64,000 nt of DNA, taken from assembly GCA_016186955.1 (NCBI GenBank), contig JACPKP010000004.1, positions 142,563 to 206,562 of the forward strand, given 5' to 3'. Positions within the stretch are counted from its first letter, which is position 1; each line of letters begins with the position of its first letter. The notes under the pieces were generated by a model, which did not search any database, was not told the DNA's origin, and saw nothing but the letters and a program-made list of their open reading frames with translations. Below are positions 10,498 to 59,669 of this stretch, piece after piece. Position numbers and translations under genes: made by a program. This DNA comes from Candidatus Daviesbacteria bacterium. Its GTDB lineage: Bacteria > Patescibacteriota > Microgenomatia > Daviesbacterales > UBA10151.

Positions 10498-10522
10498 GGA
10501 TTCCCGTCTTCGCGGGAATGAC
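10498..10522. repeat. RPE-like short palindromic repeat copy (ggattcccgtcttcgcgggaatgac)
   Basis: Member of the GTCATYCCCGC-loop-GCGGGRATCC family. A second hairpin, caccgcttt-tt-aaagcggtg, follows. Confidence 0.7.
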
Positions 10523-10610
10523 AGGAAGATGCACCGCTTTTTAAAGCGGTGTAGATTCACTAAAAGGATTTAACAAATCGTTAATCTCCTAGTCTAGTAC
10601 CTAAAAAATT

Positions 10611-11345
10611 ATGACCAAGGAAGAATTAGAGCACATATTAAAAAATCATGACATTGTCAAACCCAAGCTTGAGATTTTGCGATTAGCTGAGGAAATTAAT
10701 CCAGAGTTTAAAAATCCACATATTGTAGGTGGTTTTTTAAGGAATATTATTTTAGATGCTTTCCCAAGAGATTGTGATGTAATATTTCAAGGACACCAAC
10801 TTAATCAACCCGGAATCCTAGAAGCAGTTCAGGAGGCAGAAAAAAGATTAGGAATTGAGCCTTACCCAGACTGGGAATTTGAAAATACTACTGCAACCGG
10901 ACGTTCAGGAGATATTTACGAAGATAATGTCGGTAAGTATACTCACCATACTGACTATTTAACAATGCTTATAATGGACACTAAGGGAAACCTCCATATT
11001 GGCGGAGAAAAAACCTTACACGACCTAGAACACAGAATTTATGATTTACATTTTCCAGGAGTCTATATTTGGGCTACTCACAGAGGAGGTGGCCGAAGTT
11101 TCTTTAGTTGCTTGTCAGGAGATTTAATTAGAGCTTATTATCTAAGTCATGTATTAAAACTGACTCCTTCTGCTACTTCTGCCTTTTTGATGGGTGAATT
11201 TGATAATATTTTTAACAATCTTAATCCTGGGGACCAACAAGCTAGATTAGACTTTTGGTTTAAAAAGACTCATGGTGATCCAGCCTACCAACCTATCTTA
11301 GATAAATACGGAGTCACAGTCTTGAAAATTAAATTAGCTGATTAG
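10611..11345 (+). CDS. Pol-beta-superfamily nucleotidyltransferase-like protein
   Basis: 'IVGGFLRNIILDAFPRDCDVIF' resembles the CCA/polyA-polymerase head motif GGxVRD...DxD. Confidence 0.35.
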   Translation: MTKEELEHILKNHDIVKPKLEILRLAEEINPEFKNPHIVGGFLRNIILDAFPRDCDVIFQGHQLNQPGILEAVQEAEKRLGIEPYPDWEFENTTATGRSGDIYEDNVGKYTHHTDYLTMLIMDTKGNLHIGGEKTLHDLEHRIYDLHFPGVYIWATHRGGGRSFFSCLSGDLIRAYYLSHVLKLTPSATSAFLMGEFDNIFNNLNPGDQQARLDFWFKKTHGDPAYQPILDKYGVTVLKIKLAD

Positions 11346-11723
11346 AAATAGTAAAAAGTGCTATAATAGGTGCATGACCAGCGTTCAATTAGTAGATAAA
11401 AACAAAGGTCTTTCATGCGTTTAGAAATTTTAAGAAACGCTATTTAAACATAGGTAAAAAACCAAATGTAAAAAATCTTCTTCCTGAAGATGTCTATCAT
11501 AATATGCGTCTGGAAGGGGAAAAAATCTCTCGTAAACAAGCTTGAGCTCTTTTTAGATGAGTAAATCCACTAAACCTAAATCAGCGACTAGCTTCAAAGA
11601 AACTGCTTTTGGAATTTTACCACAACACATTGCGGTAATGGGATAAAAAAGGGATACTCAAAGCAGTGCGCTTTGGGCAACGCCGGGACAGGTGTTACCG
11701 AAAAGAGGATATACCTAAGTTGA

Positions 11724-12347
11724 TTGGTAAAAAACGATATGAATAATTTACCTGCTGGAATTGTTCTTTCAATAAAACCAAAGGAATATCTTGTACAAGG
11801 CTCTAGTCATTGCGGGGCTTATTCAGTAAAAGGCATATTAAGCGCATTTGGCAAAGATTATAAAGGACACCCAAAGGAATACCATCCAATCTTGTTAGGT
11901 AGGTTGACCGGAGGAACATTTGGGAGAAACTATTGGGTAAATGTCTTAAAACATCATGGCATCGATGCGGAATTTCAAACAGCCAAAAAATTATCTCCTG
12001 TTGAAAAAATTAATCTTCTGAAAAATCTTCTTGCAAAAAATACTCCCGTAATGATCCGCATAGGAAACGGTTATTTTAGAAGTAATACCTATAATCCAAT
12101 TTTAGGAAAAATTGTACCTCACTGGATAACGTTTTGGGGTTATGATGATAAAGAAAAAGTATTTTATGTTTATGATTCTGGATTGACCAAAAACCTTTAT
12201 GATAGAAATGTTCCAATAGGAAATACTAAAAGGACTTATGATGAGATTTTAAAAGATTGGAATTTTGGTGCATGGCAAGCTTGGACTTGGCATACTTCAC
12301 CACAAACCTATGCCTACATTAAAATAAATTCGGATAAAATTATATAA
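11724..12347 (+). CDS. Hypothetical protein (possible papain-like Cys/His fold)
   Basis: 'GSSHCGAYS' and downstream 'VPHWITFWGYD' suggest a Cys...His pairing. This is weak. Confidence 0.25.
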   Translation: MVKNDMNNLPAGIVLSIKPKEYLVQGSSHCGAYSVKGILSAFGKDYKGHPKEYHPILLGRLTGGTFGRNYWVNVLKHHGIDAEFQTAKKLSPVEKINLLKNLLAKNTPVMIRIGNGYFRSNTYNPILGKIVPHWITFWGYDDKEKVFYVYDSGLTKNLYDRNVPIGNTKRTYDEILKDWNFGAWQAWTWHTSPQTYAYIKINSDKII

Positions 12348-12349
12348 CT

Positions 12350-12736
12350 TTGGATAAACTAAAACATATTTTTCTTCTGTCATTGTTACTTATCTACGCT
12401 CACGGTGTTGAAGAAATTATAAATGGTTTTCAATATTCAGATTCATTTATGGTTTACGGTGCAAATTTGTTTAATACAACACCAGAAATTTTTTACTGGA
12501 TTTCTCATCTAATATGGTGGTTTTCCTTACCCTTACTATTTTTGGTATTCAATAAAAGTCGCTTAGGTTTATTCCTAATGACTTTATATGGTTTTGTGTT
12601 TTTTATTGAAATACACCACTCGATTAAAGGGTTTTTAGCCGGTCGCTATTATCCCGGCATGGTTACAGCGATGCTTTACCCAATTTTTGGGATTTTTTAT
12701 TGGAGGCAGCTTTTTAGCTTGAAATATTCAACTTAA
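12350..12736 (+). CDS. HXXEE-motif membrane protein
   Basis: 'AHGVEEI' lies in the first TM region. The protein is multi-pass hydrophobic. Confidence 0.35.
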   Translation: MDKLKHIFLLSLLLIYAHGVEEIINGFQYSDSFMVYGANLFNTTPEIFYWISHLIWWFSLPLLFLVFNKSRLGLFLMTLYGFVFFIEIHHSIKGFLAGRYYPGMVTAMLYPIFGIFYWRQLFSLKYST

Positions 12737-12753
12737 GTAAATATAATATCTCA

Positions 12754-13162
12754 ATGATTGAGAAAGAAAAATTTTCAACAAGCCAAACCTTAAGCCTACC
12801 AAGTATTCGGAAGACTCCTTTGACTAATGAAGATTCATTGGTTGTTAGTGGAAATATTGCCGTATTAACAGATGGAATGGGTGGGTCTCGTAATACGCGA
12901 ATGGCAAGTCGTTATGTTTCCGGTATGATTCTTGTTAAACATGAAAAATATGTTTAATGTTCAAACAGGAACCATTATGCTGCAAAAAAATGACAAATTA
13001 ATATTAACTTCAGACGGGGTGACTGATAATTTAACATCCGATGAGATTCTCAAAAATAGCAAAGATGCCATGACTATTGCACTGGCAGCGCATACCAGAT
13101 CTAAGACCCAGAGCTTCCGTTCCACTCCCGATGATGTAACAGTATTTTTGGGGGTTATTTAA
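12754..13162 (+). pseudogene. PP2C-like phosphatase remnant split by a frameshift
   Basis: ORF1 carries 'LTDGMGGS' (PP2C metal-binding motif) and ORF2 carries 'LILTSDGVTDNLTSDEIL' (C-terminal PP2C motif). The N-terminal half is missing. Confidence 0.4.
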
Positions 13163-13275
13163 ACTTAGTGTTGTAGAATATCTTCAAGGGTCTTCTATTT
13201 GATTCCTAGCTAACATATTTAAAAATGTTAACACAAATCAAACCAACTTTGGGAATTTAATATTTTTTATCCAAC

Positions 13276-13353
13276 AAAGAGGAGGTGGGAAGCCCTGCCT
13301 GTCCTGACTGCCGTCAGGCAGGACGGCAGGCAGGTAATCCATCTGGAGGGTGT
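13276..13353. repeat. 78-bp GC-rich MITE-like repeat, copy 2
   Basis: Identical to 10028-10105 except for one C/T difference. Confidence 0.85.
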
Positions 13354-13527
13354 CAATCTGGTTTTCTATAATACCCTCATGATTTACAAAGTTTACATCC
13401 TTAGAACTCCCTCAAATAATCTGTACATTGGTCAAACCAATGATCTAGAAAGAAGCACTTATTAAAGGAGACTTCGATACTTAAAAGAGATTGAATCTGG
13501 TAAAATAATACAGTAATAAAAACAACT

Positions 13528-14676
13528 ATGAAAATTCTGACTAATACCCAATCTGTCCAGATAGGTGGAATCACGCAATATAATGCATTATTCCAACAGT
13601 TCCTGGAGAAAAATAACAAAGAAGATACGCACATGATAGGTGTAGATGTTATAAGAAAATATTCTCTACACGAGGAATTATTGTATGGACGACATACAGA
13701 TGGGCAAGTTACTATTATTACCCAGGAAGTTTCCATACGAAGGATACAGGACGTTTTACCAATTATTAAATCAGTAAGAGATATAGAAGATGAGTATCAA
13801 AATATTATTGAGATATTTAAAAAAATAATCAAAGCAGAAAAACCTGATTTAATAGTTATTAATGGGACTTATTTTATCCCCTGGTGTCTATATTTAGCAA
13901 CAAAATCATTTAGTATTCCAATTATTCTCCATTATCACGGAATAATAACTAAAGAAACTGAGACTTGGAACTTGCATTCTCACTCGCTTATGAAGCAGAT
14001 GGAGCAGACCTTTGATAATAGTAGATTATACTATATCTTCCCTTCAAATTTAGCAAAAGAGGTGGTGGAAAATGAGGTATTTGGACACCAAATTCACCAG
14101 AGTGCTATTTTACCTAATCCAATACCAGCTAATTTTTTTGATGTCAATATTCTTGGTGGCACAAGAAATGTTGGAATTGTAGCCAGGTGGACAGACATTA
14201 AAAATACTGATTTTATAAAAAAGTTTGCAGAGCTAAATCAAAAAAATCATAATTTTTTTAAAATAAATATGGTAACGGATATTGATCAAATCCCAAATAA
14301 AGATATAGGGATTTCAAAGATAATTAATTTACATCATCCAATGTCTGCTTATAAATTAGGGGAGTTTTATGGAATTATGGGAACAATTATTTGCCCCTCT
14401 ACTTTTGAGACCTATGGGAATGTTCCGCAAGAGGCAATTGCTACTAGAACACCTGTTTTAATAGGTTCAAGTATGGGAATTGCCGAGGTATTTCGCCGGA
14501 TGGGTTTAGGCTATTTGATAACCGATTTTACTTTTGTAGAAGATGTGTTTGAAAAAGTTAAGGAAGTAGCTAAACTAGGAATAAGTGATAAAATGCGTAG
14601 AAGATTTAAAAAAACACTGTCTCCAGATCATGTATATCCTCAGTTACTGAATATATACAAATCAGCTACTAGATAA
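13528..14676 (+). CDS. GT4-family glycosyltransferase
   Basis: C-terminal 'FETYGNVPQEAIATRTPVLIGSSMG' is the GT4 E-x7-E-like block. Confidence 0.55.
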   Translation: MKILTNTQSVQIGGITQYNALFQQFLEKNNKEDTHMIGVDVIRKYSLHEELLYGRHTDGQVTIITQEVSIRRIQDVLPIIKSVRDIEDEYQNIIEIFKKIIKAEKPDLIVINGTYFIPWCLYLATKSFSIPIILHYHGIITKETETWNLHSHSLMKQMEQTFDNSRLYYIFPSNLAKEVVENEVFGHQIHQSAILPNPIPANFFDVNILGGTRNVGIVARWTDIKNTDFIKKFAELNQKNHNFFKINMVTDIDQIPNKDIGISKIINLHHPMSAYKLGEFYGIMGTIICPSTFETYGNVPQEAIATRTPVLIGSSMGIAEVFRRMGLGYLITDFTFVEDVFEKVKEVAKLGISDKMRRRFKKTLSPDHVYPQLLNIYKSATR

Positions 14677-14677
14677 A

Positions 14678-15847
14678 ATGAGAGAAATTGTACCTGGAAA
14701 AATTAATATCGGTATTGTATGTTCTTCTTCAATTGGAGGTAGCGGAGTTGTTGGGTCAGATCTTGCGAAGTATTTATCTAAAAACAATAAATACAAAATA
14801 GTTTATATAGGTTTTGACCTCCCCCTTCGTTTAAGTAGAAGTGATATTTTCTTCCATACAGTAAAAGCGGTTGAACATGCTCTATTTACTAATCCTTTAA
14901 GAGAAACGGCCTTAGTAGAAGGTATTATTGAAGCAGTAATTGAGCACAAACTTGATATAATCCATGCACATTTTGCTATTCCATTTGCCTATTGCGCTCT
15001 ACAAGCCCGAGAAATATTGAAAAGGATGGGCATAAATATAAAAGTGGTGACAACCTTGCATGGAACTGATGTTTTGACTTTAGGGCGTGAAGTTCCTGGA
15101 ACCATGAAATATGTACTAGAGCAAAGTAACGCTGTCACAGCCGTCTCCGTAGATTTAGCTGAAAAAGCGAAAAGGATTTACCATACACAGAAAAACATCA
15201 GAGTAATTTATAATTTCATTGACTTAAACCGTAACCTGAAACATAAGGCTAATTTACTTGGTAGTACAAATATCCCCAAAACAGATAAAAAGATTTTTAT
15301 CCATATCTCTAATTTCAGACCTATTAAAAAAGTTAACGATACTCTGAAAGTGTTTGCAAAGGTTAATAAACAGATCCCCTCTGTTTTGCTCCTAATAGGA
15401 GAAGGTCCAGAATTTGAAATAGCTAAGAAACTTTGTAAATCAGTGGACAAAAGTCAATCCATTCACTTTATGGGCATAGTAAAAAATCCTTACAAATATC
15501 TTCAAATAGCGGATGGATTAATTGTTACCTCCGAATATGAGAGTTTTTGTCTGGTCGGCTTAGAAGCAATGTCCTTTGGAGTTCCAGTGTTTAGTACCAA
15601 AGTAGGGGGTATTCCTGAGGTAGTAAAGCACGGGAAATCTGGATATCTTGCAAAATATGGTGATATAGAAGCTTTATCACAGTATATTATTAGACATTTT
15701 TCCTACAGCAATAAGGCCCTTTTGATAAAAGAACAAGCGCAAGAATTATCCAAAAATTTTGCAGCAGAAAATATTATCCCTCAATATGAGCAAATCTATC
15801 GACAGCTATACCTTTCCAAAAACCAAATTACCACTACTATGAGTTGA
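14678..15847 (+). CDS. GT4 glycosyltransferase, BshA/MshA-like
   Basis: N-terminal 'KINIGIVCSSSIGGSGVVGSDLAKYL...IIHAHFAIPFAYCA...TTLHGTDV' closely parallels BshA. The GT4 C-terminal block 'EYESFCLVGLEAMSFGVPVFSTKVGGIPEVV' is present. Confidence 0.7.
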   Translation: MREIVPGKINIGIVCSSSIGGSGVVGSDLAKYLSKNNKYKIVYIGFDLPLRLSRSDIFFHTVKAVEHALFTNPLRETALVEGIIEAVIEHKLDIIHAHFAIPFAYCALQAREILKRMGINIKVVTTLHGTDVLTLGREVPGTMKYVLEQSNAVTAVSVDLAEKAKRIYHTQKNIRVIYNFIDLNRNLKHKANLLGSTNIPKTDKKIFIHISNFRPIKKVNDTLKVFAKVNKQIPSVLLLIGEGPEFEIAKKLCKSVDKSQSIHFMGIVKNPYKYLQIADGLIVTSEYESFCLVGLEAMSFGVPVFSTKVGGIPEVVKHGKSGYLAKYGDIEALSQYIIRHFSYSNKALLIKEQAQELSKNFAAENIIPQYEQIYRQLYLSKNQITTTMS

Positions 15848-15931
15848 TGTAGTATGCTGTATATGTGCTTGATCCTGTCCAGTTAACAACTGAGGAGTTT
15901 GATTTACTGCTTGCTCATAAAAAGAGTTCAC

Positions 15932-16051
15932 TTGATTAACTTACCAGCTTATGCACCTGACCATAATCCACAGGAACATGTCTGGAAATATGGAAAGGAT
16001 AAAATTGCTAATACACAATGTGCACTTGACAGGATGTACAGAATTTTGTAA
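15932..16051 (+). pseudogene. IS630/Tc1-family transposase C-terminal remnant
   Basis: 'INLPAYAPDHNPQEHVWKYGKDKIANTQ' matches the IS630 C-terminal LPPYSPxLNPIExxW block. No intact transposase is present. Confidence 0.5.
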
Positions 16052-16060
16052 TATTGATGA

Positions 16061-16336
16061 ATGATTAAAACATTACCTATTACCAAAGCAAGAGAAGAAT
16101 TGACCAGTCTGGTTAATAAAGCCAACAAATTATTAGATGAATATATAATTACTGTAAATGGTTCTCCTGCAGCTGTTTTAATGTCTGCTGCAGAATATGA
16201 ATCCTGGAAAGAAACAACTGAAATTCTCGCTGATACACAATTGATGAAAGCAGTCAAAGAAGGCGAGGAGGATTTCAAAAAGGGAAAATTTGTTACATTT
16301 GATAAACTGAAAAAAGAGCTCAAGTTAAATGTTTAA
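16061..16336 (+). CDS. Phd/YefM-family antitoxin
   Basis: 91 aa. The 'ITVNGSPAAVLMSAAEYESWKETTEIL' fold signature is present. It overlaps the downstream toxin by 8 nt. Confidence 0.8.
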   Translation: MIKTLPITKAREELTSLVNKANKLLDEYIITVNGSPAAVLMSAAEYESWKETTEILADTQLMKAVKEGEEDFKKGKFVTFDKLKKELKLNV

Positions 16337-16580
16337 ATTATTGGTTTCCGTCAGAGCTCAAAAAAGAATCAAACTGCTTAAAACATCCCATCAGGAGGCT
16401 ATTTTATCCACTCTGCAGGAAATAAAAGAAGATCCTCTTATTGGCAAGTCCCTAACAAGGGAATTAAAAGGGCGATTTTCATACAGAGTTGGTATTTATA
16501 GGATAATCTATCGTGTTAATCAGCAGGATAAAACCATCCGCGTGTTAAATGCTGGACACCGGGCTACTATTTACAACTAG
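16329..16580 (+). CDS. RelE/ParE-family toxin
   Basis: 83 aa. 'YRIIYRVNQQDKTIRVLNAGHR' is the typical RelE/ParE C-terminus. Confidence 0.75.
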   Translation: MFKLLVSVRAQKRIKLLKTSHQEAILSTLQEIKEDPLIGKSLTRELKGRFSYRVGIYRIIYRVNQQDKTIRVLNAGHRATIYN

Positions 16581-17624: not shown

Positions 17625-17632
17625 TAAATGCT

Positions 17633-43673: not shown

Positions 43674-46600
43674 GGCTTAAATATTCATCCCAGCTTTTAA
43701 TTTGCAGATCTTCAAGTTTTTTTTCAGTTACCGCATAGGAAAATTCAATCGCTGCCTGTAGGTTTGTCATCAGGGGTATGGCAAAATCCACACAATTTCT
43801 CCTGATGATAAAACCATCCCTCTTGGCCCGATCTTCTCCTATTAAACTGATATTGATGGCAAGATCTACCTGAGCTTTTTTTATCAGGTCTAAAACAGTA
43901 GGGTGTTTCCCTTCTGATAATTTAAAAACAGTGGTATTTTTAATACCTGAGAGTTTTAGGAATTTCGAAGTCCCCTCAGTGGCAAAAATTTCTAAATTAA
44001 GAGTAGTCAATTTCCGGGCGCTTTCCAAAAAATCCAGTTTGTTTTTATCTCCGCCGATAGAGAGGAAAATAGATTTTTCCGGCATTTTCCAGCCTGTTGA
44101 AAAAAGGGCTTTCAGATATGCTTCATGAAGGTCCCGGCCAAAACAAGCCACCTCACCTGTGGATGACATCTCCACCTTAAGTTTGGGGTCAGCTTCTTTA
44201 ATCCTGTTAAATGAAAATTGTGGCGCTTTCACTCCCACATAATCTAAATCAACTGTCTGAAAATCACCTGTAATATTTTCTCCAACTATTACTTTTGCGG
44301 CAATTTCAATAAAATTTATCCCTGTCACCTTTGATACAAAAGGGAATGAGCGGGATGCACGAAGGTTAAGTTCAATGACCATCACCTTATTGTCTTTTGC
44401 TAAAAACTGGATATTAAATGGCCCGTGGATATTTAAAACCTTGAGGATTTTTTTAGTCTCCAGTTTTATCTGACGCATTGTTTCAAGATACAGCCTTTGC
44501 GGAGGCAAGACTAAAGTTGCATCCCCGGAGTGTACTCCTGCATTCTCGATATGTTCGCTGATCGCATAAATTAAAAGTTTGCCGCTCTTTGCAACCCCGT
44601 CTATCTCTATTTCCTTGGCATTGTCAATAAATTTACTGATCACCACCGGGTGTTTTGAAGAAACCTTAGCAGCTTTGTTTAAATATATAGCAACCTCTCT
44701 GGAGGAATTTGCTATATTCATGGCAGACCCACTTAAAACATAAGATGGCCTGATCAGGACAGGATAACCTACTTTCCCGGCAAACCGTTTGACACTTCCG
44801 GTATTTTTTATTTGCTCCCATTGGGGCTGGGATATGGAAAGCCTGTCTAAAAGCGCACTGAATTTATGGCGGTCTTCTGCAAAATCAATACTTTTGGTTG
44901 GCGTCCCCAATATAGCCATCTTTTCAGCGGCAAATAAAGCAGCAAGATTATTGGGTATCTGCCCACCAAAAGCTAAAACCAACTTGGCATTTTTCTCAAC
45001 CTTGTAGATATCAACTATTCTTTCCAATGTAAGTTCTTCAAAATAAAGTTTGTCTGCAATATCAAAATCCGTAGAGACAGTTTCAGGGTTACAGTTTATA
45101 ACTATTGTTTCCAACCCCTGCTGCCTGAAAGTTGCAACAGCCGTTACCAGGCACCAGTCAAATTCGACAGATGAACCTATCCTGTAAGGGCCGGCGCCTA
45201 AAACAATTACTTTTTTGCAGTTATGAGTTTGCCTGAATCCTGAATCCTGGATCCTTAATCTTGAATCATTTTCTGATTCCTCTCCATGGTATGTCATATA
45301 AAGGTAGTTTGTTTTGGCAGGGTACTCTGCAGCCAGCGTATCTATATGCTTGGTTTTAGGGTAAATATTCCATCTTTCCCTAAACTTCCTGACTTTGTTT
45401 AAACTCATCCTGCAGGAGGCTGCGATTAAATTATCGGAAAAGCCTAATTTCTTTGCCTGCAAAAAATTTTCGTTGTTAAACTTATAGGCAGGGCCAAAAT
45501 TCTTTTGATAATCTACAATCTCTTTGACCTGGTTTAAAAACCATTGGTCAATGCCTGTTTCTTTACTTATACTTTCGACAGATGAATTCCTTAAAAATTG
45601 TTGCGCTATTGCAAAAAGCCTTAAACTCCCGGGTGAGAGGGAATCTTCTCCTGGCATACCAAGCAGCCCGTCCTGTCCTGTCTCAAGCATCCTGACTGCT
45701 TTCTGCAGGCTTTCTGGAAAACTTCTGCCTATTGCCATTACCTCACCCACACTTTTCATTTCAGAACCGATCCGTAAATTCGCCCCTTCAAATTTTTGCA
45801 GGTCCCACCTGGGAATTTTAACCACTATATAATCAAGGGCAGGCTCAAAAAAAGCTGAAGTTCCGGTAACAATATTTTTAAGCTCCCTCAGGCTATAACC
45901 TAAACTTAGCTTGCATGCTATGTATGCCAGCGGGTATCCGGTTGCTTTTGAAGCAAGTGCAGATGACCTGGACAACCTGGCGTTTACCTCAATCACCCGG
46001 TAATCATCAGACTTTGGGTCAAGCGCAAACTGGATGTTGCATTCGCCAACTATCCCAAGATGTTCAATCACTTTAAGTGAAATTTGCCTGAGCAGATGGT
46101 ATTGATAGTTGTTTAGGGTTTGGGAGGGAGCCACTACAATACTCTCGCCCGTATGAATTCCCACCGGATCCATATTCTCCATATTGCAAACAGCTATTTT
46201 ATTCCCACCTTTATCCCTGACGATTTCATATTCAATCTCTTTCCAATGCCTTAAGTATTCTTCAATAGCAACCTGTGGGGCGTTTTTTAAAGCCATGGAT
46301 ACAACCAAATTAAGGTCTTCTTTGTTATTTACAACAGAAGATCCAAGTCCCCCAAGGGAAAAGCCCGACCTTACCATAACCGGATAACCTATCTTATTTG
46401 CAATCATCAATGCCCCCTTTACATCCCTGGCAAAACCGCCTCTGGGCGCTTTTATGCCGATTCCACCCAAATACTTTGCAAAAAGCTGGCGGTCTTCGGT
46501 GATTTCAATACTTTTTACAGGCGTCCCTAAAACAGTAATCTTATTTTTTTTGAACACACCACTGCCCGACAGGTTTAAACCACAATTTAAGGCAGTTTGT

Positions 46601-46867: not shown

Positions 46868-46910
46868 GTCATTGCGAGGACTCCGATATCCATCGGAGGA
46901 CGTGGCAATC
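46868..46910. repeat. RPE-like palindromic repeat variant immediately 5' of carB (gtcattgcgagga...ggcaatc) + T-run
   Basis: It shares the GTCATT... ...AATC termini with the family. The internal hairpin is ctccgat-atcc-atcggag. Confidence 0.5.
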
Positions 46911-47135
46911 TTTTTATTAGCAAGGCTCGAAGGCTTTGTTTATGAAGCTCCACGGCTAAAGCCGTGGTATCTTCTCATTACAGCTTCACAGCAAAAAGCT
47001 GTTCAGCTGACCGCCTTCGGCGGAGAAAAGCATTCATCCACGGTTAAAACCGTGGTTTTCTGCTTTTTGCTGATAAGATTTCTCGCTCCGCTTTAAATGA
47101 CAAATTGAATTTTGAAATTGTATTCAGTTTGTCAA

Positions 47136-48260
47136 CTAAATCATACTAATGAACTCATCAAACAGATACTCAGCATCAGTCGGACCTGGGCTAGCCTCAG
47201 GGTGAAACTGGACAGCCAGAAATGGCTTTTTTTTATGCCTGATTCCCTCATTGGAACCATCATTTAAATTAATAAACCATTCACTCCAACCCAAAGGCAT
47301 GCTTGTAAAATTAACGGCAAAACCGTGATTTTGGCTGGTTATAATGGCTTTTTTAGTAATGAGATTTTGGACAGGTTGGTTTTGGCCCCGATGGCCAAAT
47401 TTCAGTTTGTATGTATCTCCGCCTGCAGCCAAAGCCAGCAGCTGGCTGCCCAGACAAATCCCGAATACAGGGACAGATTGGCTCAACAAATTTTTTATAG
47501 TTAGTATTGTATCCTTGGAATTTTTGGGGTTGCCCGGCCCGTTGGAGATTAAAACTCCGTCAAAATTCCATTTTTCCTCAATAGGGTCAAAATTCCAGGG
47601 AGCAACAGTTACCCTAAGCTTACGCTTCAGCAGACTCCTGATGATGTTTTGTTTGGCGCCACAATCTATCACCACAACATTTTTTTTGCCTGTTCCATAT
47701 GTTTGGGGTTTTTCAATTGAAACAAACTGCAAAACATTTTCTAGATTTGGATTGTAAATTTCATTTTTGTCATTCTGAACTTGATTCAGAATCTTTCCTG
47801 CATTAGAATGGATTCCCGCTTTCGCTCGCCTCGCTGAAGCTTCGGCGAAGCGGGCGGGAATGACAGTAAGCCGTCCCAACATTGCTCCTTGAGATCTTAA
47901 CTTGGTTGTCAAAGCTCTGGTGTCTATCCCCTGCAAAGCAGGAATACCTTCTTTTTTGAGCCACTCACCCAAACTCATGATGCTTGCAAAGTGGGAGGGG
48001 GAATCAATGTAATTTTGGACAATAAGACCCCTTACCCAAATCTTCCTGGACTCAAAATATTTAGGGTTAGGTACTCCATAGCTTCCAATAATGGGGTAGG
48101 TGAGGACTAAAATTTGGCCAAAGTAGCTGGGGTCTGTCAGGCTCTCGGGGTAACCCACCATCCCTGTATTAAAAACAACCTCCCCTGAGCTTGAAACATC
48201 AGCCCCGAAAGATTCACCTATAAAGGTAGCGCCATCAGATAGAATTAATTTCCCCTGCAA
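47136..48260 (-). CDS. carA: Carbamoyl-phosphate synthase small subunit (glutamine amidotransferase)
   Basis: GATase catalytic 'GICLGSQ' and 'HGFAV...QFHPE' are present. It carries an ~18-aa in-frame insertion encoded by a palindromic repeat. Confidence 0.85.
   Translation of the reverse strand: MQGKLILSDGATFIGESFGADVSSSGEVVFNTGMVGYPESLTDPSYFGQILVLTYPIIGSYGVPNPKYFESRKIWVRGLIVQNYIDSPSHFASIMSLGEWLKKEGIPALQGIDTRALTTKLRSQGAMLGRLTVIPARFAEASARRAKAGIHSNAGKILNQVQNDKNEIYNPNLENVLQFVSIEKPQTYGTGKKNVVVIDCGAKQNIIRSLLKRKLRVTVAPWNFDPIEEKWNFDGVLISNGPGNPKNSKDTILTIKNLLSQSVPVFGICLGSQLLALAAGGDTYKLKFGHRGQNQPVQNLITKKAIITSQNHGFAVNFTSMPLGWSEWFINLNDGSNEGIRHKKKPFLAVQFHPEASPGPTDAEYLFDEFISMI
47811..47864. repeat. 54-nt RPE-like palindromic repeat inserted in-frame within carA
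   Basis: On the coding strand it reads gtcattcccgcccgcttcgccgaagcttcagcgaggcgagcgaaagcgggaatc. This translates to 'VIPARFAEASARRAKAGI' between conserved CarA blocks. Confidence 0.75.
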
Positions 48261-52853: not shown

Positions 52854-52857
52854 AAAT

Positions 52858-53988: not shown

Positions 53989-54036
53989 AGATACGTCAGG
54001 ATTATATCAGTTTTTTATCAAGCTGTCAAATAATTT

Positions 54037-54450
54037 TTGGGTTATAGTTTTAACATGATCGAAAAAGATAGTAAAAACACGTCTGAGTTTGTTGGAAATT
54101 TACCACTGCTTATAGACCGGTACCGTGATACAAGGGCTGGTGACACTTATGTGGAACCTGTAAGCTACAGCGAGCAGTTTTTGGTCTCGGAAAAATTTAC
54201 CCAAAGGCAAATTGAGGTTTTAGCAGAATTTATAACATCCAAACGCTTAGAGCCTGTTTTGATTAAAGTATCAACTATACACACATACAATGAATTCAGG
54301 GAACCTTCATACTGGGCTTCCCTCGTTATAAGCTGCAAAGATGAAAAAAATTTCCATGAGCTGATAAAAAAACATAACAGTAAAGAGGCTGATTATGACA
54401 GCTGGTTAAAACCGGGGGGTTGGATCCAGCAGGATGATCTTGGGAGGTGA
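54037..54450 (+). CDS. Hypothetical protein
   Basis: ORF only. Confidence 0.3.
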   Translation: MGYSFNMIEKDSKNTSEFVGNLPLLIDRYRDTRAGDTYVEPVSYSEQFLVSEKFTQRQIEVLAEFITSKRLEPVLIKVSTIHTYNEFREPSYWASLVISCKDEKNFHELIKKHNSKEADYDSWLKPGGWIQQDDLGR

Positions 54451-54655
54451 AATTTTTATGAAGGAGACAGAAATTCTAGTATTGGAAAAAGGCTCAAGTT
54501 GGGAAAAGATGGATAATGAAAGTCTGCACCTTTGGATTGATGCCTTAAATTTGACAATTGAACATATAGAAAAGATTTTAGAGGGCAGGGAAAGAAAGAC
54601 AAAGCCTAACCCGGTGTTTGCAGACAGGCGTTATTTTTTCCATTGTGATGATTAA
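54434..54655 (+). CDS. Hypothetical small protein
   Basis: ORF only. It overlaps the previous stop. Confidence 0.2.
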   Translation: MILGGEIFMKETEILVLEKGSSWEKMDNESLHLWIDALNLTIEHIEKILEGRERKTKPNPVFADRRYFFHCDD

Positions 54656-54671
54656 AAATTAGTTTAAAATT

Positions 54672-55340
54672 ATGGAAAATATTAATTTTGATCTTTACTT
54701 AATCAGGCACGGGGAATCTGAGGCAAACCGCAAAAAAAATATTATATGCGGCAGGAGTCCTAATGCCCCCTTAACCCGTAAAGGCAGGCTTCAGGCTAAA
54801 AGTCTTGGCCAAAGGCTGGCCGGGGAAGGCATAAAATTTGACAAAGTTTTTTCTTCCCCGTTTGTCAGGGCTCTTGACACATGCGATCTGGCAGTTGAAC
54901 CCACGGGGTTCCGGCCTGATCGGGTAATAATAGATGATGCGCTTGTGGAGATGAGCCAGGGAGAATGGGAAGGAAGGATCAGAGAACAAGTTTATATTAA
55001 GGATGTCCTGATTGATATGAACAGCCAGGGTAAGTTTTTCCTGCCGGAGGGGGGAGAATCACAAAGGCTGATAGAAAGAAGGGCTTCCAACTGGTTTGAA
55101 GACAATATTTTATACAACAGTGAGTTTTATGATGGCGTTCATAGGACATTCGCTGTTTTTACCCACACACAGTGGGTTCGGGCATTCCTTCATTACGTTA
55201 TGGGGTTTAACGACAGGCTTATCCATAAGATCGCCATAGATAATGCCTCCTTAACCAGACTGTACTTTGATAAATCAGGTTGGGGAATAGGCCCGCAGTT
55301 TAACGACACATCACATCTAAAAATAGAAGAACCTAAATGA
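54672..55340 (+). CDS. Histidine phosphatase (phosphoglycerate-mutase-like) family protein, paralog 1
   Basis: 'LIRHGESEANR' (RHG motif). Confidence 0.7.
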   Translation: MENINFDLYLIRHGESEANRKKNIICGRSPNAPLTRKGRLQAKSLGQRLAGEGIKFDKVFSSPFVRALDTCDLAVEPTGFRPDRVIIDDALVEMSQGEWEGRIREQVYIKDVLIDMNSQGKFFLPEGGESQRLIERRASNWFEDNILYNSEFYDGVHRTFAVFTHTQWVRAFLHYVMGFNDRLIHKIAIDNASLTRLYFDKSGWGIGPQFNDTSHLKIEEPK

Positions 55341-55353
55341 AGGGGGGTGAAAT

Positions 55354-55764
55354 ATGAATATTGAAAAAAAAGACAACGACATGAAAACTTCGGAATGGTT
55401 TGTGAAATATCTGCAAAGCCATGAGAATTATTGCATGGAAGATGACATACTTGAAGAAATATTGACAATGGAGGAAGAGGGTGTAGAGGATTTGGTGGCT
55501 GTTGTAAATGATAAAAAAGCACGGGGAATTTTCAGGGCTGCTGCAATAGACAGACTCTCACACCTGATACGGGATACTCAAAAAGAGCGCTTTTTGGATA
55601 TCTTGAGGATCAACTGTGATAAAGATACCGAGCACATTGACGAAGTAAGGGAGCATTGTTTCGGATGGAGATATTACCTGGAAGAAGATAAGCAGTCCTT
55701 GAATCAGGAGGCTTTGAAGGATCCTAATTTCAACATACAGTGGTTGGGAACTTTTGAGGATTAG
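55354..55764 (+). CDS. Hypothetical acidic protein
   Basis: ORF only. It lies between the two histidine-phosphatase paralogs. Confidence 0.3.
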   Translation: MNIEKKDNDMKTSEWFVKYLQSHENYCMEDDILEEILTMEEEGVEDLVAVVNDKKARGIFRAAAIDRLSHLIRDTQKERFLDILRINCDKDTEHIDEVREHCFGWRYYLEEDKQSLNQEALKDPNFNIQWLGTFED

Positions 55765-55812
55765 GTCAAAAAGTGTGGTAATATCCCATTAGAGTCAATA
55801 ATTTGATAATTT

Positions 55813-56451
55813 ATGCTTCATGAAAATACAGAACTGACAATATATCTGATCAGGCATGGGGAGTCTGAGGCAAACCTTAGGGCAGACAGTTTTGGAAACA
55901 AGTTAACACCGCTGACCAAAAAAGGGCAAAGGCAGGCAATCAGACTGGGCAAACTACTCAAAAAAGAGGGTGTTATATTTGATAAGGTTTACAGCTCCCC
56001 GTTGCCCAGAAGCCTGCAAACCTGCCAACTGGTGGTAGGAGAGCTCGGTTACCCTTTTGACCAGGTAGTCCAGGTTCAGGCGCTAGAGGAGATTGATGCG
56101 GGTATCTGGGAGGGAAAAATCAGGGATGATGTTCTGACACCGGAGATAGCATTGCGGATGAGCAGAAAAGGGGACCTGTTTGCCCCGGTAAATGGTGAAT
56201 CATGGAGAATGGTCAGAAGGCGTATTGCCAACTGGTTTGATGATGAGATACTTTATAATCCAGCCTATCTCACAAAACGTCAAACCTTAGGGGTGTTTGG
56301 TCATGCAACTGCAGACAAACTGCTGCTTCAAGATTTGATTAATTTTGATACTGCTTTTTTAAATAAAATGCATTTCGGGAATACAGGGTATATTAAGCTT
56401 TTTTTAAATAAGGACGGTATATCCATCCATAAATTTATCTCCCACCCCTAA
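55813..56451 (+). CDS. Histidine phosphatase family protein, paralog 2
   Basis: 'LIRHGESEANL'. It parallels paralog 1 along its length. Confidence 0.7.
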   Translation: MLHENTELTIYLIRHGESEANLRADSFGNKLTPLTKKGQRQAIRLGKLLKKEGVIFDKVYSSPLPRSLQTCQLVVGELGYPFDQVVQVQALEEIDAGIWEGKIRDDVLTPEIALRMSRKGDLFAPVNGESWRMVRRRIANWFDDEILYNPAYLTKRQTLGVFGHATADKLLLQDLINFDTAFLNKMHFGNTGYIKLFLNKDGISIHKFISHP

Positions 56452-56693
56452 AAGTTAAAATTTGCAAGCTTGAATAGGGTTAGCAAAAGGATCGCTGCAA
56501 CAAATGCCGTTGTGACAGGAAAATAGAGCCTGAACCCGAACTTATCAACTATCATATCCCAGGGAAATCTGGGAAGATTGGGCTCAAAATTAAAAATTAA
56601 GGTCAAAATCCCGAATGTGCCTATTAAAATATATATCCCATGCAAAATAGCAGTCACACCTAAATCATACCAAATCTTTTTTAACAATTTCAT
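56448..56693 (-). CDS. Small membrane protein (hypothetical)
   Basis: Two hydrophobic helices. The start is uncertain and it overlaps the 3' end of the upstream gene. Confidence 0.25.
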   Translation of the reverse strand: MKLLKKIWYDLGVTAILHGIYILIGTFGILTLIFNFEPNLPRFPWDMIVDKFGFRLYFPVTTAFVAAILLLTLFKLANFNF

Positions 56694-57876
56694 TAGGTAA
56701 AGTTGTTTTAAAACTCCCGATTTTAACCCCAGGGTAGACAGAGGTGTTGATACCAAGCTTTACACCATCTCCGATAACTGCCCCAAATTTATTCCTGCCG
56801 GTATCAGTCAGTTCATTATTTATCATCATTTTGATATTTTTAAAATCATGCCTTAAATTGGCAACTTTGGAGCCTGCACCAAAGTTTGTTGTATTCCCGA
56901 TAATGCTGTCACCAACGTATGATTGGTGCCTTAAACTGACATCATTACCCAAGCTGGACCTGACAACCTCCGAACCGTTTCCCACAAAACAATTATTTCC
57001 AAGCGCCGCAAAACCCTTAAGGTAGCAGTTTGGCCCGATAACACAGTTTTCCCCGATATAAAAATTTCCCTCAAGGTATGCGCCACTCTTGATAATTGAA
57101 CCTTTTCCTAAAAAAATTTTACCTTTTATTGTGACGCCTTTTTCCACCTTGCCCAATATTAAACTCTTTTTCATGCCTGAAAATAGTTTTTGTGTAGCTT
57201 CCAGAATTTGCCAGGGGTAGCTGATTGGGATTGAACCCATGTCATTTCGGATAATCTTAATAAACCGGTCTTTGGCATACAAATTGATCAGGTCTGTTAC
57301 TTCAAATTCACCCCTTTTGGATAATTTAATTTTTGGGCAGTATTGAAAAATTTTGCTGCCAACAAAGTAAAAACCGGTGTTGGCCAGGTTGCTGATAAAT
57401 TTTTTGGGCTTTTCTACAATTTCTGTTAACCTGCCGTTGTTTGATTTTACCGCACCTACACTGCTGCAATCCTCCTGGCGCCTGCAAATCAGAAAATCCT
57501 TACCCAAAAAGCTCTTTTGGAAGAGTTCCTTGGAATAGATATCATCACCGTTGATAATTACCAGCCTGCTGCCCCCAATAACATCTTTCACTAAGCCCAG
57601 TGCAACTGCATTACCATTTAATTTTTTCTGGGTGACATATTTTATGGGGACGCCTTTGTAAGATTTTCCAAAATAATCCCTGATCAGGCTTTCTAAATGT
57701 CCCACAACCATAACTATTTCCGAAATATACCTGTATGCATTCTCCATGTTCCATTCAAGGATTAGTTTACCGGCAATTTTAATCAGGGGTTTGGGGGTGG
57801 TATTTGTTAAAGGCTGAAGCCTGGTGCCTTTTCCTGCAGCCAGGATAATCAGAGACGGTTTATCCATAATTTCCAT
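56665..57876 (-). CDS. Bifunctional-type sugar-1-phosphate nucleotidyltransferase with C-terminal left-handed beta-helix (GlmU-like)
   Basis: 'LIILAAGKGTRLQPLTNTTPKPL' is the NTP-transferase motif. C-terminal hexapeptide repeats are present. The start is set at 'MEIMDKP' because the ORF-track N-terminus 'MDPRFRGDD' is a translated palindromic repeat. Confidence 0.7.
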   Translation of the reverse strand: MEIMDKPSLIILAAGKGTRLQPLTNTTPKPLIKIAGKLILEWNMENAYRYISEIVMVVGHLESLIRDYFGKSYKGVPIKYVTQKKLNGNAVALGLVKDVIGGSRLVIINGDDIYSKELFQKSFLGKDFLICRRQEDCSSVGAVKSNNGRLTEIVEKPKKFISNLANTGFYFVGSKIFQYCPKIKLSKRGEFEVTDLINLYAKDRFIKIIRNDMGSIPISYPWQILEATQKLFSGMKKSLILGKVEKGVTIKGKIFLGKGSIIKSGAYLEGNFYIGENCVIGPNCYLKGFAALGNNCFVGNGSEVVRSSLGNDVSLRHQSYVGDSIIGNTTNFGAGSKVANLRHDFKNIKMMINNELTDTGRNKFGAVIGDGVKLGINTSVYPGVKIGSFKTTLPNEIVKKDLV

Positions 57877-57901
57877 GTCATCCCCGCGGAAGCGGGGATC
57901 C
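57877..57901. repeat. RPE-like palindromic repeat (gtcatccccgcggaagcggggatcc) abutting the glmU-like start
   Basis: Family member with a C/G variant. It reads as 'DPRFRGDD' in the gene frame. Confidence 0.7.
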
Positions 57902-57911
57902 AATTAAAATC

Positions 57912-59669
57912 CTACCTCACAACGACTGACTTTGCCAGATTTCTAGGTCTATCAGGGTTCAACCCTAATTTCAAAGCCAGATAGTATGACAAAAGCTGGG
58001 CAAAAACAGGGTGGGGGATAACTGAGCTTGCCCCAACATCCCTTACCTTAAAAAAGAAGTCAAAAACCGGATTGTTCTCCGGTCCTACACCGATAATAAA
58101 TGCGCCCCGTGCCTTAACCTCCATGGCGTTTGCCAAAATGGCCTGTTTAGTTTCATCTTCCGGTACAAAAACTATCACAGGAGTATTTTTTTCTATTAGC
58201 GCAATCACTCCATGCTTAAGCTCTCCTCCTGCAAAACCCTCAGCATGGATATAGGCGTTTTCCTTAATTTTAAGACTTGATTCCATTGCAACAGGGTACG
58301 AAAGCCCCCTTCCCAAAATGAAAATATTTTTCTGGTGGAATATTTTACCTGCTAAATTTTTGATTGCAGACCTCCTTTTAAGAATTGATTCAATTTCTCT
58401 GGCGCTTTCAAGGATTATTTTTTGGGCTGTTTTTCTTTTACCAACAAGACAATAAGATAAAAACACCATATGGGCAAACATGGCTGTCAAAGCCTTTGTG
58501 GAACATACTGCTTTTTCAACACCTGCCCTCAGCAAAACAGGGAAATCCACGCTCCTGTACAAGGTTGAGCCTAAAACATTAACCAAAGCAACTGTTTTTG
58601 CACCATGCTTTTTTGCTGAAAGTACAGGTTCAAGCGTATCAATGCTTTCCCCTGACTGTGAAACAGCCACCACCAGGCTTTTAGGCTTTATGTAATCCTC
58701 GATATAATTGAACTCAGATCCAACTGAAAAGTTAACATGTTTTTTGGCTATTTTTGAGAAAAGATAAACTCCCAGCAGACATGAATAACTGGCCGATCCG
58801 CAAGCGATAAAAAATGTCCCATAGGCTTTCCTGATCATGCCCGCCACTTGCTCCACCTCTTTGGCGTTTTGTGCAATATTCCGGAGCGCCTTTGGCTGCT
58901 CATATATTTCTTTTTCTAAAAAGTATTTATATTTTTGCAGGCCTGAAGTACTGTGTTCCCAAGGCACCGTAGTAATAATAGGCTGAAGTTTTCTGGAGTT
59001 TAGGCTGTTGTAAAGCTCTAATTCTTTATTTAACCTGATAAGCTGGTTATCTTGTAAAAACACTAATTTTTTTGTGTGGGGGAGTAAGGCGTTCGGATCG
59101 GAAGCAATAAAAAGTTTTCCATTGCCAACACCTGCGATAAGGGGTGAACCAACTTTAGCTGCAATAATTTCATTCCCATCAGATACCACAATAGCGTTTA
59201 ATCCGCGTAATTTCTGGAATATATTTAAAACCGCTTGATTTAAACCATTTTTTTTTAGCGCTTCTTCAATCAAGTGTACGATCACCTCGGTATCAGTTTC
59301 AGATTTCAGATTGTGGCTTTTAAGGGTTTTTTTAAGCTCAAGATAATTCTCAACTATGCCGTTATGGACTAAAACCAGTTTGCCGCTGCAATCTTTATGT
59401 GGGTGGGCATTAATTTGAGTAACACCTCCATGTGTGGCCCAGCGGGTATGCCCTATTGCCAATCCCACACCGTCATTCCCGCGAAAGCGGGAATCCATTA
59501 TTTTTGGTAAAAAACCTGTGTTTTTTTCTATCTTCCATATTCCATCTTCTATATTCCAACTTGCTATTCCCCAAGAATCATAACCCCTGTACTCTATATC
59601 TTTGAGGCCATTAAAGGTTGTTTGAACCGCATTTGTATCCTGACCAATTACCCCAAAAATTCCGCACAT
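57912..59669 (-). CDS. glmS: Glutamine--fructose-6-phosphate aminotransferase
   Basis: 'MCGIFGV', 'GHTRWATHG' and two SIS domains with 'SQSGES' are present. It carries a 9-aa in-frame insertion from a palindromic repeat. Confidence 0.9.
   Translation of the reverse strand: MCGIFGVIGQDTNAVQTTFNGLKDIEYRGYDSWGIASWNIEDGIWKIEKNTGFLPKIMDSRFRGNDGVGLAIGHTRWATHGGVTQINAHPHKDCSGKLVLVHNGIVENYLELKKTLKSHNLKSETDTEVIVHLIEEALKKNGLNQAVLNIFQKLRGLNAIVVSDGNEIIAAKVGSPLIAGVGNGKLFIASDPNALLPHTKKLVFLQDNQLIRLNKELELYNSLNSRKLQPIITTVPWEHSTSGLQKYKYFLEKEIYEQPKALRNIAQNAKEVEQVAGMIRKAYGTFFIACGSASYSCLLGVYLFSKIAKKHVNFSVGSEFNYIEDYIKPKSLVVAVSQSGESIDTLEPVLSAKKHGAKTVALVNVLGSTLYRSVDFPVLLRAGVEKAVCSTKALTAMFAHMVFLSYCLVGKRKTAQKIILESAREIESILKRRSAIKNLAGKIFHQKNIFILGRGLSYPVAMESSLKIKENAYIHAEGFAGGELKHGVIALIEKNTPVIVFVPEDETKQAILANAMEVKARGAFIIGVGPENNPVFDFFFKVRDVGASSVIPHPVFAQLLSYYLALKLGLNPDRPRNLAKSVVVR
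59472..59496. repeat. RPE-like palindromic repeat inserted in-frame within glmS
   Basis: gtcattcccgcgaaagcgggaatcc translates on the coding strand to 'MDSRFRGND', immediately before 'GVGLAIGHTRWATHG'. Confidence 0.75.

Follow-up and report, generated by a model that had tools for sequence, protein, structure and literature searches.

The window analysed here is a 64-kb stretch of DNA from a metagenome-assembled genome (MAG) of Candidatus Daviesbacteria (Microgenomates, within the candidate phyla radiation, CPR), with a G+C content of 38.8%. Its CarA, GlmS and small GIY-YIG proteins are identical to NCBI entries annotated as Candidatus Daviesbacteria. Its genes include carA and carB, glmS and a glmU-like gene, and it is dotted with seven short hairpins of the form (T/C)GTCAT-stem-loop-stem-ATC(CAT). 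Three of the seven lie in frame within genes: one in a loop of GlmS, and a convergent pair in the inter-domain linker of CarA. On their sequence, flanks, fold and multiplicity, we assign these hairpins to the dRS3-like family known as the Neisseria Transformation Sequence (NTS) and, in its more general form, the Ssn-related motif (SRM). In other words, what we describe is a known and already named repeat family that is behaving in a new way, genic and in frame, in a new phylum.

The hairpins (Table 1) were collected by a structure-aware scan for GTCAT...ATC with an interior that closes into a stem. Five had been picked out by an earlier, sequence-only reading of the window, and reading each site confirms all five; the scan adds the copies at 4900-4932(+) and 47769-47793(+). 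The regular expression that accompanied the earlier reading, built on the termini GTCATYCCCGC and GCGGGRATCC, was too narrow for its own copies: it matches on the + strand only 57877-57901 and 59472-59496 (0.00 expected in 100 shuffles) and misses the other three, of which 10499-10522 and 47811-47864 are on the - strand and 46868-46910 is a stem variant. Markov shuffles give 0-2 matches to the structure-aware scan at the same threshold at which 6 are observed in the window. The half-sites are also in excess (GTCATYCCSG, 4 observed vs 0.14 expected; CSGGRATCCA, 4 observed vs 0.29 expected), all of these matches being parts of full copies, with no orphan half-site of either kind in the window.

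Predicted folding as single-stranded DNA (ssDNA) gives the seven copies z-scores of -2.5 to -4.2 and one common architecture. In 7/7, the four bases N-G-T-C are unpaired before a stem that starts with AT, and four further bases, usually CCAT, are unpaired after it; the asymmetric flanks, GTC 5' of the stem and C 3' of it, are likewise kept in 7/7. Two copies are plainly intergenic: 4900-4932 (-10.3 kcal/mol as DNA, z = -3.6) lies downstream of a DUF1003 gene (4192-4836, by Pfam), and 10499-10522 lies between a truncated IS1595 transposase (10105-10475, by Pfam) and the open reading frame (ORF) 10611-11345. Two others adjoin start codons, at the carB 5' flank and the glmU-like start where the sequence-only reading had put them. 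The first, 46868-46910 (-10.6 kcal/mol, z = -3.9), is directly 5' of, or overlaps, the start codon of carB (- strand, start 46866 or 46872). The second, 57877-57900 (-9.8 kcal/mol, z = -4.0), takes up most of the 35-nt spacer from the glmS stop at 57912 to the likely glmU-like ATG at 57876-57874 (- strand), which it adjoins. The genic fraction, 3/7, is below the rough coding fraction of 85-90% that we estimated by eye from the ORF list, which is consistent with selection against most genic insertions.

Table 1. Hairpins of the window, followed by the GIY-YIG gene at its left edge and by the state of one CarB linker in the window and in related loci (L numbers denote fetched loci)
Feature	Position	Strand	Basis, context or reading
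Variant hairpin GTCATCCC-GA-TCCGGCGTAGCCGGA-GA-GGGATC, nested inner stem	4900..4932	+	scan, fold
Canonical SRM hairpin TGTCATTCCCGCGAAGACGGGAATCCAT	10496..10523 (hairpin 10499-10522)	-	exact match to published SRM degenerate motif
Stem-variant hairpin GTCATTGCGAGG...GCAATC	46868..46910	+	scan, fold
AT-rich stem variant GTCATTCTGAACTTGATTCAGAATC	47769..47793	+	in carA (- strand), read as ILNQVQND; right-hand member of convergent pair
54-nt composite hairpin, SRM stem around second hairpin (CCGCTTCGCCGAAGCTTCAGCGAGGCGAGCG)	47811..47864	-	in carA, read as VIPARFAEASARRAKAGI
Hairpin GTCATCCCCGCGGAAGCGGGGATC	57877..57900	+	glmS-glmU spacer
Canonical NTS/SRM hairpin CGTCATTCCCGCGAAAGCGGGAATCCAT	59471..59498	+	in glmS (- strand), read as MDSRFRGND, residues 58-66
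82-aa GIY-YIG gene, MBI2595706.1	1-108, runs off left edge; complete in L003, 59-304	-	Pfam PF01541, E = 1.6e-13
CarB linker before second ATP-grasp half, window			heptamer repeat
CarB linker, L004			convergent hairpin pair
CarB linker, L005			pair of GTCATTGCGAGG subtype
CarB linker, L006			nothing

Family identity and distribution

The NTS/SRM-Ssn system was described only in 2025, in Nat Commun, in a text from which CPR bacteria are absent (PMC11893778). The NTS consensus, CGTCATTCCCGCGMAVGCGGGAATCYRG, contains the older dRS3 repeat, and the degenerate SRM is written HGTCWYN(0-2)YYVSBRHN(0-5)WNVSBRGN(0-2)RNCYNB (PMC11893778). The partner enzyme SsnA is a 94-aa GIY-YIG protein (cd10448) of Neisseria that binds and cuts the NTS hairpin only as ssDNA, with the cut placed just upstream; cleavage needs the three bases upstream of the palindrome, and binding depends most on the C right after it (PMC11893778). 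The genes for such enzymes, ssn, are typically SRM-flanked, and the authors liken the NTS-ssnA-NTS architecture to insertion sequences and raise repeat multiplication as an open question (PMC11893778).

How closely do the window copies agree with these definitions? The copies at 59471-59498 and 10496-10523 are exact SRM pattern matches, and the former agrees with the NTS consensus at 27/28 bases, the mismatch being only at the last base. The other five have the same termini, but their longer loops or variant stems put them outside the strict SRM pattern. The 20-bp core of dRS3, ATTCCCN8GGGAAT, occurs in the window as ATTCCCGCGAAAGCGGGAAT at 59475-59494 and as ATTCCCGCGAAGACGGGAAT at 10500-10519 (minus strand).

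The dispersed family that the earlier reading supposed is borne out well beyond the window, where further copies are abundant. An exact 27-mer pattern, GTCATTCCCGCGNNNGCGGGAATCCAT, is found in 72 contigs of a viral collection and in at least 120 genome contigs. Its hosts, among the matches listed, are Proteobacteria, Chloroflexota, Planctomycetota, Verrucomicrobiota, Nitrospirota, Acidobacteriota, Spirochaetes, Bacteroidota/Ignavibacteria, Omnitrophica, Actinomycetes, Neisseria, and the CPR groups Peribacteria and Saccharibacteria. Among relatives of the window, the hairpin load varies: L004 has 7 in 5.8 kb, and the closest relatives have none (L006, 0 in 14.2 kb; L249, 0 in 4.8 kb).

Might such hairpins instead be functional structures selected by the host, such as terminators or attenuators, mRNA stabilisers, or translational controls at gene starts, whose presence in genes is adaptive? 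The stems are stable, and the two copies that adjoin start codons (46868-46910 at carB and 57877-57900 at the glmU-like gene) have purine-rich 3' arms at the place expected of a ribosome-binding site. Against this, three copies lie within coding sequence in both orientations, the closest relatives do without hairpins at every site, the same sequence is present in phyla of 32% to 73% GC, and SsnA is without activity on RNA (PMC11893778). A terminator in particular was rejected on sequence context, there being no consistent T-run after the stem and genic copies on both strands. We consider host function as a whole to be quite unlikely.

Copies within CarA, CarB and GlmS

The carA insert (47769-47864; 96 nt, 32 codons) is made up of two convergent hairpins 17 nt apart, placed in the linker that joins the CarA domains. 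Across 120 homologues this linker is hypervariable, running from ~6 to ~45 residues. Neither hairpin is present in the closest homologue, P0002, which is 81% identical outside the linker; hairpin peptides occupy this linker site in P0003, P0010 and P0030, and three other homologues have DSRLRGND or DSRIRGND at a second site. Compared with human CPS1, the window CarA has ~28 extra residues, exactly at the inter-domain linker. The insert appears to be tolerated, lying as it does in a low-confidence inter-domain segment of the AlphaFold (AF2) model: the 10-residue blocks 141-170, which hold most of the insert (136-167), have a mean predicted local distance difference test score (pLDDT) of 51-72, and several domain-core blocks have a pLDDT of at least 90. 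Across the CarA alignment, C269, H353 and E355, the catalytic residues, do not vary.

A pair of this type occupies that carA site in L004 and L005 as well; its composite is shorter there, and its second stem is another one. The second hairpin of L004/L005 departs from that of the window by three pair changes, which could be viewed as compensatory evolution; we do not count them as selection because independent insertion of different family members explains them equally well. Carriers of CarA hairpins are scattered on a neighbour-joining (NJ) tree, next to hairpin-free sisters, and vertical inheritance of the pair was rejected on that ground, with the proviso that this tree, at 65-80% identity, is robust only for the pairing of P0001 with P0002.

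In GlmS, the hairpin segment sits in the loop after a conserved GFLP. This loop has ~10 residues in nearly all of 120 GlmS homologues (57-100% identity), and ~115/120 have the short loop without MDSRFRGND; KIMDSRFRGNDGVGL is found only in the window protein. Three homologues, P0127, P0207 and P0225, have unrelated hairpin-type peptides in the same loop (IPKQVRDD; IKSGMT; VIPAKAGIH...INSGMT). The glmS DNA of the closest relative (72% protein identity) is 15 nt shorter at the loop, which is otherwise unalignable. Cys1 is kept in the window GlmS, whose alignment with the E. coli protein runs over the full length. The peptides predicted from the insert-bearing CarA and GlmS are VIPARFAEASARRAK and MDSRFRGNDGVGLAIGHTR.

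The sequence-only reading had placed two of its copies inside genes, and rightly so: 59472-59495 translates as MDSRFRGND in GlmS and 47811-47864 translates as the composite peptide of Table 1 in CarA. It had also allowed for the objection that these segments are conserved protein sequence in all homologues; that such sequence is palindromic by chance, or that the segments are assembly artefacts, are worries of the same kind. E. coli GlmS has a loop of similar length here. The objection does not hold, since the carA and glmS segments are sporadic and lineage-specific in the 120 homologues aligned for each protein, the peptides being absent from nearly all of them, and since the DNA is the same in type as that of the intergenic copies. 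The Logan short-read assembly L001 encodes an identical GlmS protein, hairpin segment included, and the glmS copy is therefore not an assembly artefact. We regard this explanation as refuted by the L001 assembly and the homologue alignments, and give it next to no chance.

In-frame insertion at permissive sites is not peculiar to the window genes: we met it in the CarA linker and the GlmS loop, in the CarB linker of L004 and L005 (Table 1), and in MiaA, RNase HII, RmlD, a GT1 glycosyltransferase and Wzy_C.

Other repeats are found at the same genes. In carB, 45232-45267 is a (CCTGAAT)x5 tandem repeat, read as SRLRIQDSGFRQ in the inter-domain linker, and in glmS, 59526-59570 is a 14-nt unit repeated 3.3 times and read as WNIEDGIWKIE. 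Many CarA and GlmS homologues have heptad-like peptides at the same variable sites (NGQWTMDNGQWK, ESRVKSQESR). Linker peptides in this clade thus seem to have a second origin in heptamer repeats. The carA-carB spacer, ~270 nt long, is filled by two CCACGGYTAAARCCGTGG hairpins, CCACGG(Y)TAAA(R)CCGTGG (46950-46967 and 47038-47055; 0 expected), together with further small palindromes; in L004 and L006, carA and carB overlap or are only 12 nt apart. The earlier reading noticed the ccacgg hairpins and called them related to its five copies; the hairpins are real, but they are a separate family, and the whole spacer has the look of repeat DNA, of a third family, that was inserted here.

Cassettes carrying ssn and a proposed origin of the pairs

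The 54-nt composite of carA is a multi-copy family in its own right, in which an SRM stem encloses a second hairpin, CCGCTTCGCC(R)AAGCTTCAGCGAGGCGAGCG. A metagenome scan yields 51 copies in 50 contigs of 32-56% G+C, a copy number somewhat inflated by near-duplicate contigs, and 16/51 are within ORFs that continue for at least 40 codons on each side. In the host genes checked (MiaA, RNase HII, RmlD, the GT1 glycosyltransferase and Wzy_C), a reverse hairpin mostly follows. At L238, the composite hairpin is followed, after 17 nt, by a 94-aa ssn gene and then immediately by a reverse SRM. The Ssn protein of L238 is OGY07468.1 of Candidatus Blackburnbacteria, another Microgenomates lineage. L228, L214 and L229 have a similar arrangement, and the Peribacteria locus L148 has a forward SRM, an ssn-like pseudogene with one in-frame stop, and a reverse SRM.

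The orientation of neighbouring hairpins points the same way. Across all fetched loci, hairpins at most 120 nt apart form 140 convergent, 21 divergent and 30 tandem pairs, where random orientation would give 1:1:2 and where near-duplicate metagenome contigs again inflate some of the counts. Convergent is the same polarity as that of the hairpins around ssn genes, and the carA pair (composite SRM+, 17-nt spacer, SRM-) agrees in its ends and polarity with the L238 cassette (composite SRM+, ssn, SRM-). Given this convergent bias, the carA pair looks like an ssn cassette that lost its gene, i.e. a MITE-like derivative (MITE, miniature inverted-repeat transposable element). Convergent pairs that are without ssn and share their ends with ssn cassettes are the signature expected of parent and derivative mobile elements, and they provide new circumstantial support for the derivation of hairpin pairs from ssn cassettes. 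Decay can be seen as well: in the near-identical contigs L215 and L248, a 36-nt in-frame deletion takes out half a hairpin, which shows decay under reading-frame constraint.

Two observations concern the ssn genes themselves. At L228 (3210-3608), and also at L214 and L229, the ssn frame enters the reverse SRM and ends at the TGA of ..GGGAATGAC, giving the C-terminus GFPLSRE*; the stop codon is thus supplied by the hairpin. Additionally, the Ssn-like best matches listed (P0241-P0360) are 61-89% identical to the query across 91-100% of its 94 residues, and their sources include Absconditabacterales, Paceibacterota, Ignavibacteria, Bacteroidetes, Omnitrophota and Francisella tularensis. Conservation this high across distant lineages is unusual and therefore suggests that Ssn is frequently transferred horizontally.

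How, then, might the hairpins have come to lie where they do? We propose that the CPR hairpins would be small selfish, non-autonomous elements, of which the cassette [SRM+]-ssn-[SRM-] would be the autonomous form. Convergent pairs with short spacers, as in carA, would be ssn-less derivatives of the cassette, and a hairpin on its own would be a solo copy or a product of further decay. An Ssn enzyme would act on the copies in this genome, and the route of insertion might be transposition-like movement or acquisition by recombination of transforming ssDNA. There would be no preferred landing place for new copies. Where the genome is AT-rich and has hardly any intergenic DNA, genes would receive many of the random insertions, of which those in frame in loops or linkers would be kept; intergenic copies would persist freely. 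The canonical copy is open in 5/6 frames (VIPAKAGI, SFPRKRES, HSRESGN, DSRFRGND, IPAFAGMT), its sole closed frame reading TGA in the complement of GTCA, and in-frame copies in tolerant places such as the CarA linker, the GlmS loop and the CarB linker would therefore escape removal by selection, with a short extra peptide as their translation product. The comparisons described above establish the identity of the family, the recurrent use of the same permissive sites, lineage-specific in-frame presence, conserved flanks, the convergent bias, the 54-nt hairpin beside ssn genes in another Microgenomates lineage and the one in-frame deletion of half a hairpin. The best explanation of the whole, and one that we consider likely, is that these are NTS/SRM repeats that exist in CPR bacteria as selfish, non-autonomous elements derived from ssn cassettes.

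Several points weigh against this proposal, beyond the inflation of counts already mentioned. We found no nucleotide-level empty site for glmS or carA, the nearest relatives being too diverged in the loop or linker, and the only close contig pair (L215 and L248) gives a partial deletion and not an empty site. GIY-YIG enzymes are, to our knowledge, not established transposases. A profile search finds no cd10448-type Ssn gene in the 64-kb window, and the GIY-YIG genes that the window does have match Ssn over the catalytic core only, without its conserved C-terminal KKWxRxWKxxLIExxNPxWxDLY. The only experimentally shown role of SsnA and the NTS is to modulate the integration of transforming DNA, with transformation being restricted (PMC11893778), and arrays of dRS3 units in Neisseria, the NIMEs, have been proposed as recombination substrates. 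Finally, the non-sister lineages P0001, P0003 and P0010 share a pair architecture at one carA site, which could reflect recombination or segment transfer and not independent insertion.

Many of these points belong to a serious rival, in which spread is passive and mediated by recombination: the hairpins would be recombination or uptake signals, in line with proposals on the dRS3/NIME arrays and the NTS of Neisseria, that reach new sites (one linker in different lineages among them) through homologous or illegitimate recombination with incoming ssDNA, and Ssn would merely trim that DNA. Segment transfer would account for a composite plus reverse hairpin at one carA site in non-sister lineages, and the identity of the best-match Ssn proteins across Ignavibacteria, Francisella and CPR groups (61-89%, among the matches listed) is also in its favour. 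It does not account for the presence of the same 54-nt element in the unrelated MiaA, RNase HII, RmlD, GT1, Wzy_C and CarA genes without shared flanking homology, and the convergent bias, together with the identical polarity around ssn, argues for a structured element with defined ends. For these reasons we judge passive spread to be rather improbable.

A different enzyme might also be envisaged, with the hairpins being repetitive extragenic palindromic (REP) or BIME-type repeats moved by a RAYT, an IS200/IS605-like HUH tyrosine transposase. REPs carry a conserved 5' GTAG, whereas the conserved 5' flank here is GTCAT. Like REPs, the window hairpins are short palindromes with asymmetric flanks, inverted pairs are frequent, as in BIMEs, and the analogy with REP/RAYT is drawn by the authors of the NTS work themselves (PMC11893778). 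In the fetched loci, however, it is a GIY-YIG gene, ssn, and not a RAYT that is repeatedly seen between paired hairpins, and a six-frame translation of the window gives no RAYT or IS200 TnpA (best E = 0.51, in a weak test with approximate query sequences). The chance that a RAYT is responsible seems to us very slim.

Returning to derivation from ssn cassettes, a bolder version of it can be formulated, in which convergent SRM pairs are true non-autonomous mobile elements and Ssn is the enzyme of an unrecognised class of GIY-YIG-driven mobile elements that target ssDNA hairpins and routinely colonise CPR coding sequence. We put this forward tentatively and consider it possible, with the odds against it. 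If it were true, essential CPR proteins would gain new linker and loop peptides from mobile SRM pairs to a significant extent. Sites that are filled, empty or decayed are plentiful in the small, AT-rich genomes of CPR bacteria, and mobility is therefore testable by comparative and population genomics.

The GIY-YIG genes of the window are of another kind. There are only two, the 82-aa gene at the left edge (Table 1) and a truncated copy at 13390-13462. The Ssn profile picks up the 82-aa gene weakly in a search of the window (E = 3e-6); over the catalytic core, hhalign gives a probability of 96.7% at 35% identity. We rejected these genes as Ssn: they form a different small subfamily, with no C-terminal tail and a different flanking palindrome. 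That palindrome belongs to a second family, CCTGCC(T)GCCGGCAGGCAGG, with sites at 129-148, 8704-8719, 10055-10074 and 13303-13322 and also in L003 (1-45 and 317-362); counted on both strands with overlaps, there are 14 pattern matches at the four places in the window vs 0.18 expected. One copy is in frame within the ORF 7847-9571 (peptide NLPAGKTG), and one is just upstream of the 82-aa gene. This gene lies between direct repeats, GTGTATACC..ATTCCACCACACCAGCA, the right-hand one of which is split by a hairpin of the second family. LPAGRQ and MPAGRQ peptides of this family are found in loops of CarA and GlmS homologues. The palindrome and the 82-aa gene may be a second pairing of a hairpin with a GIY-YIG gene.

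Two further repeats of the window deserve mention. A ~77-bp repeat (AAAGAGGAGGTGGGAAGCCCTGCCTGTCCTGACTGCCGTCAGGCAGGACGGCAGGCAGGTAATCCAYCTGGAGGGTGT) occurs at 10028-10104 and 13277-13353, adjoining the truncated IS1595 transposase and the truncated GIY-YIG ORF, respectively, and may be a breakpoint mark or a mobile promoter-like cassette. A 54-bp tandem repeat (2.9 copies, 99% identical), the units of which start with the tRNA-5'-like GCGGGATCGTCTAATG, is followed by the 5' half of a tRNA-Gln-like sequence, an ORF with a helix-turn-helix (HTH) domain and an intact tRNA-Gln (coordinates of the region: 4940-5093, 5138-5175, 5220-5909, 5914-5986); the region resembles what is left of an element once integrated at a tRNA gene. 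The Logan contig L002 stops within this tandem repeat and L003 at the repeat that flanks the GIY-YIG gene; repeats may fragment short-read assemblies. Some short-read contigs also appear to end where hairpins lie.

Comparison with known repeat systems

The closest known system is NTS/SRM itself. The window hairpins share with it 27/28 bases of the NTS consensus, exact SRM matches, the hairpin architecture, the GTC...C flanks and multi-copy dispersal, and SRM-ssn-SRM cassettes are present in the CPR loci L148 and L238. The differences lie in the host, which here is a CPR bacterium; in genic placement, with 3/7 in frame within genes here vs only 2% of NTS inside genes in N. meningitidis (PMC11893778); in the stems, which here are more variable and include the 54-nt composite with its nested hairpin; and in the lack of an Ssn gene within the 64-kb window.

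The sequence-only reading had likened the hairpins to the Rickettsia palindromic elements (RPEs) and suggested an analogous, unnamed family. RPEs are ~150 bp long and form ten Rickettsia families, each encoding a conserved peptide, and they lie in frame in housekeeping genes at permissive sites (PMC10969869). The likeness in behaviour stands: in both cases, palindromic repeats are found in frame in unrelated housekeeping genes, at permissive sites, and are translated as an extra peptide. Membership does not stand, failing on size, sequence family and host (Candidatus Daviesbacteria, not Rickettsia). The units here are 24-54 nt (96 nt for a pair), their peptide varies with the frame, and RPEs were set apart by description, without a consensus alignment. 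RPEs are also without a known nuclease partner, whereas the window family is linked to a GIY-YIG gene and is spread across many phyla. What the earlier reading left unnamed thus has a name already, NTS/SRM (dRS3-like), and a partner, the GIY-YIG nuclease Ssn (PMC11893778), that is not RPE-related.

NIMEs (dRS3-RS-dRS3) are intergenic arrays of inverted dRS3 units with RS spacers of 19-214 bp, thought to be specific to Neisseria. Inverted dRS3-type hairpins around a short spacer are common to NIMEs, the carA pair and the 140 convergent pairs, and the dRS3 core is present here; the window, however, has a single pair with a 17-nt spacer, within carA of a CPR genome, and no arrays. With REP/BIME-RAYT systems and MITEs, the family shares non-autonomous palindromes, inverted pairs, a small enzyme gene with its own repeats on either side and a proposed ssDNA hairpin substrate, and the terminal inverted repeats common to the carA pair and the gene-carrying L238 cassette are MITE-like. 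It differs from them in having a GIY-YIG enzyme in place of an HUH-Y1 or DDE enzyme, in its flank motif and in having no demonstrated target-site duplication. Repetitive palindromic or hairpin elements are also said, by the titles of papers on fungal and sponge mitochondria, to spread in mitochondrial genomes. Such elements are GC-rich, in AT-rich genomes, and enter coding sequence; they are of another sequence family and in another compartment, so the comparison is by analogy only.

What is new, set beside these systems, is that the NTS/SRM family is present, and in the proposed view active, in CPR/Microgenomates, and that in-frame copies are frequent in essential genes (those for CarA, CarB, GlmS, MiaA, RNase HII and others). 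A literature search on hairpin-encoded peptides and on palindromic insertions in CPR bacteria found nothing within the library that it covered. The stereotyped peptides VIPAKAGI, DSRFRGND, IPAFAGMT and SFPRKRES are usable as flags for such insertions. Outside the RPEs, these in-frame copies may rank among the clearer examples of palindromic repeats that are translated within housekeeping proteins.

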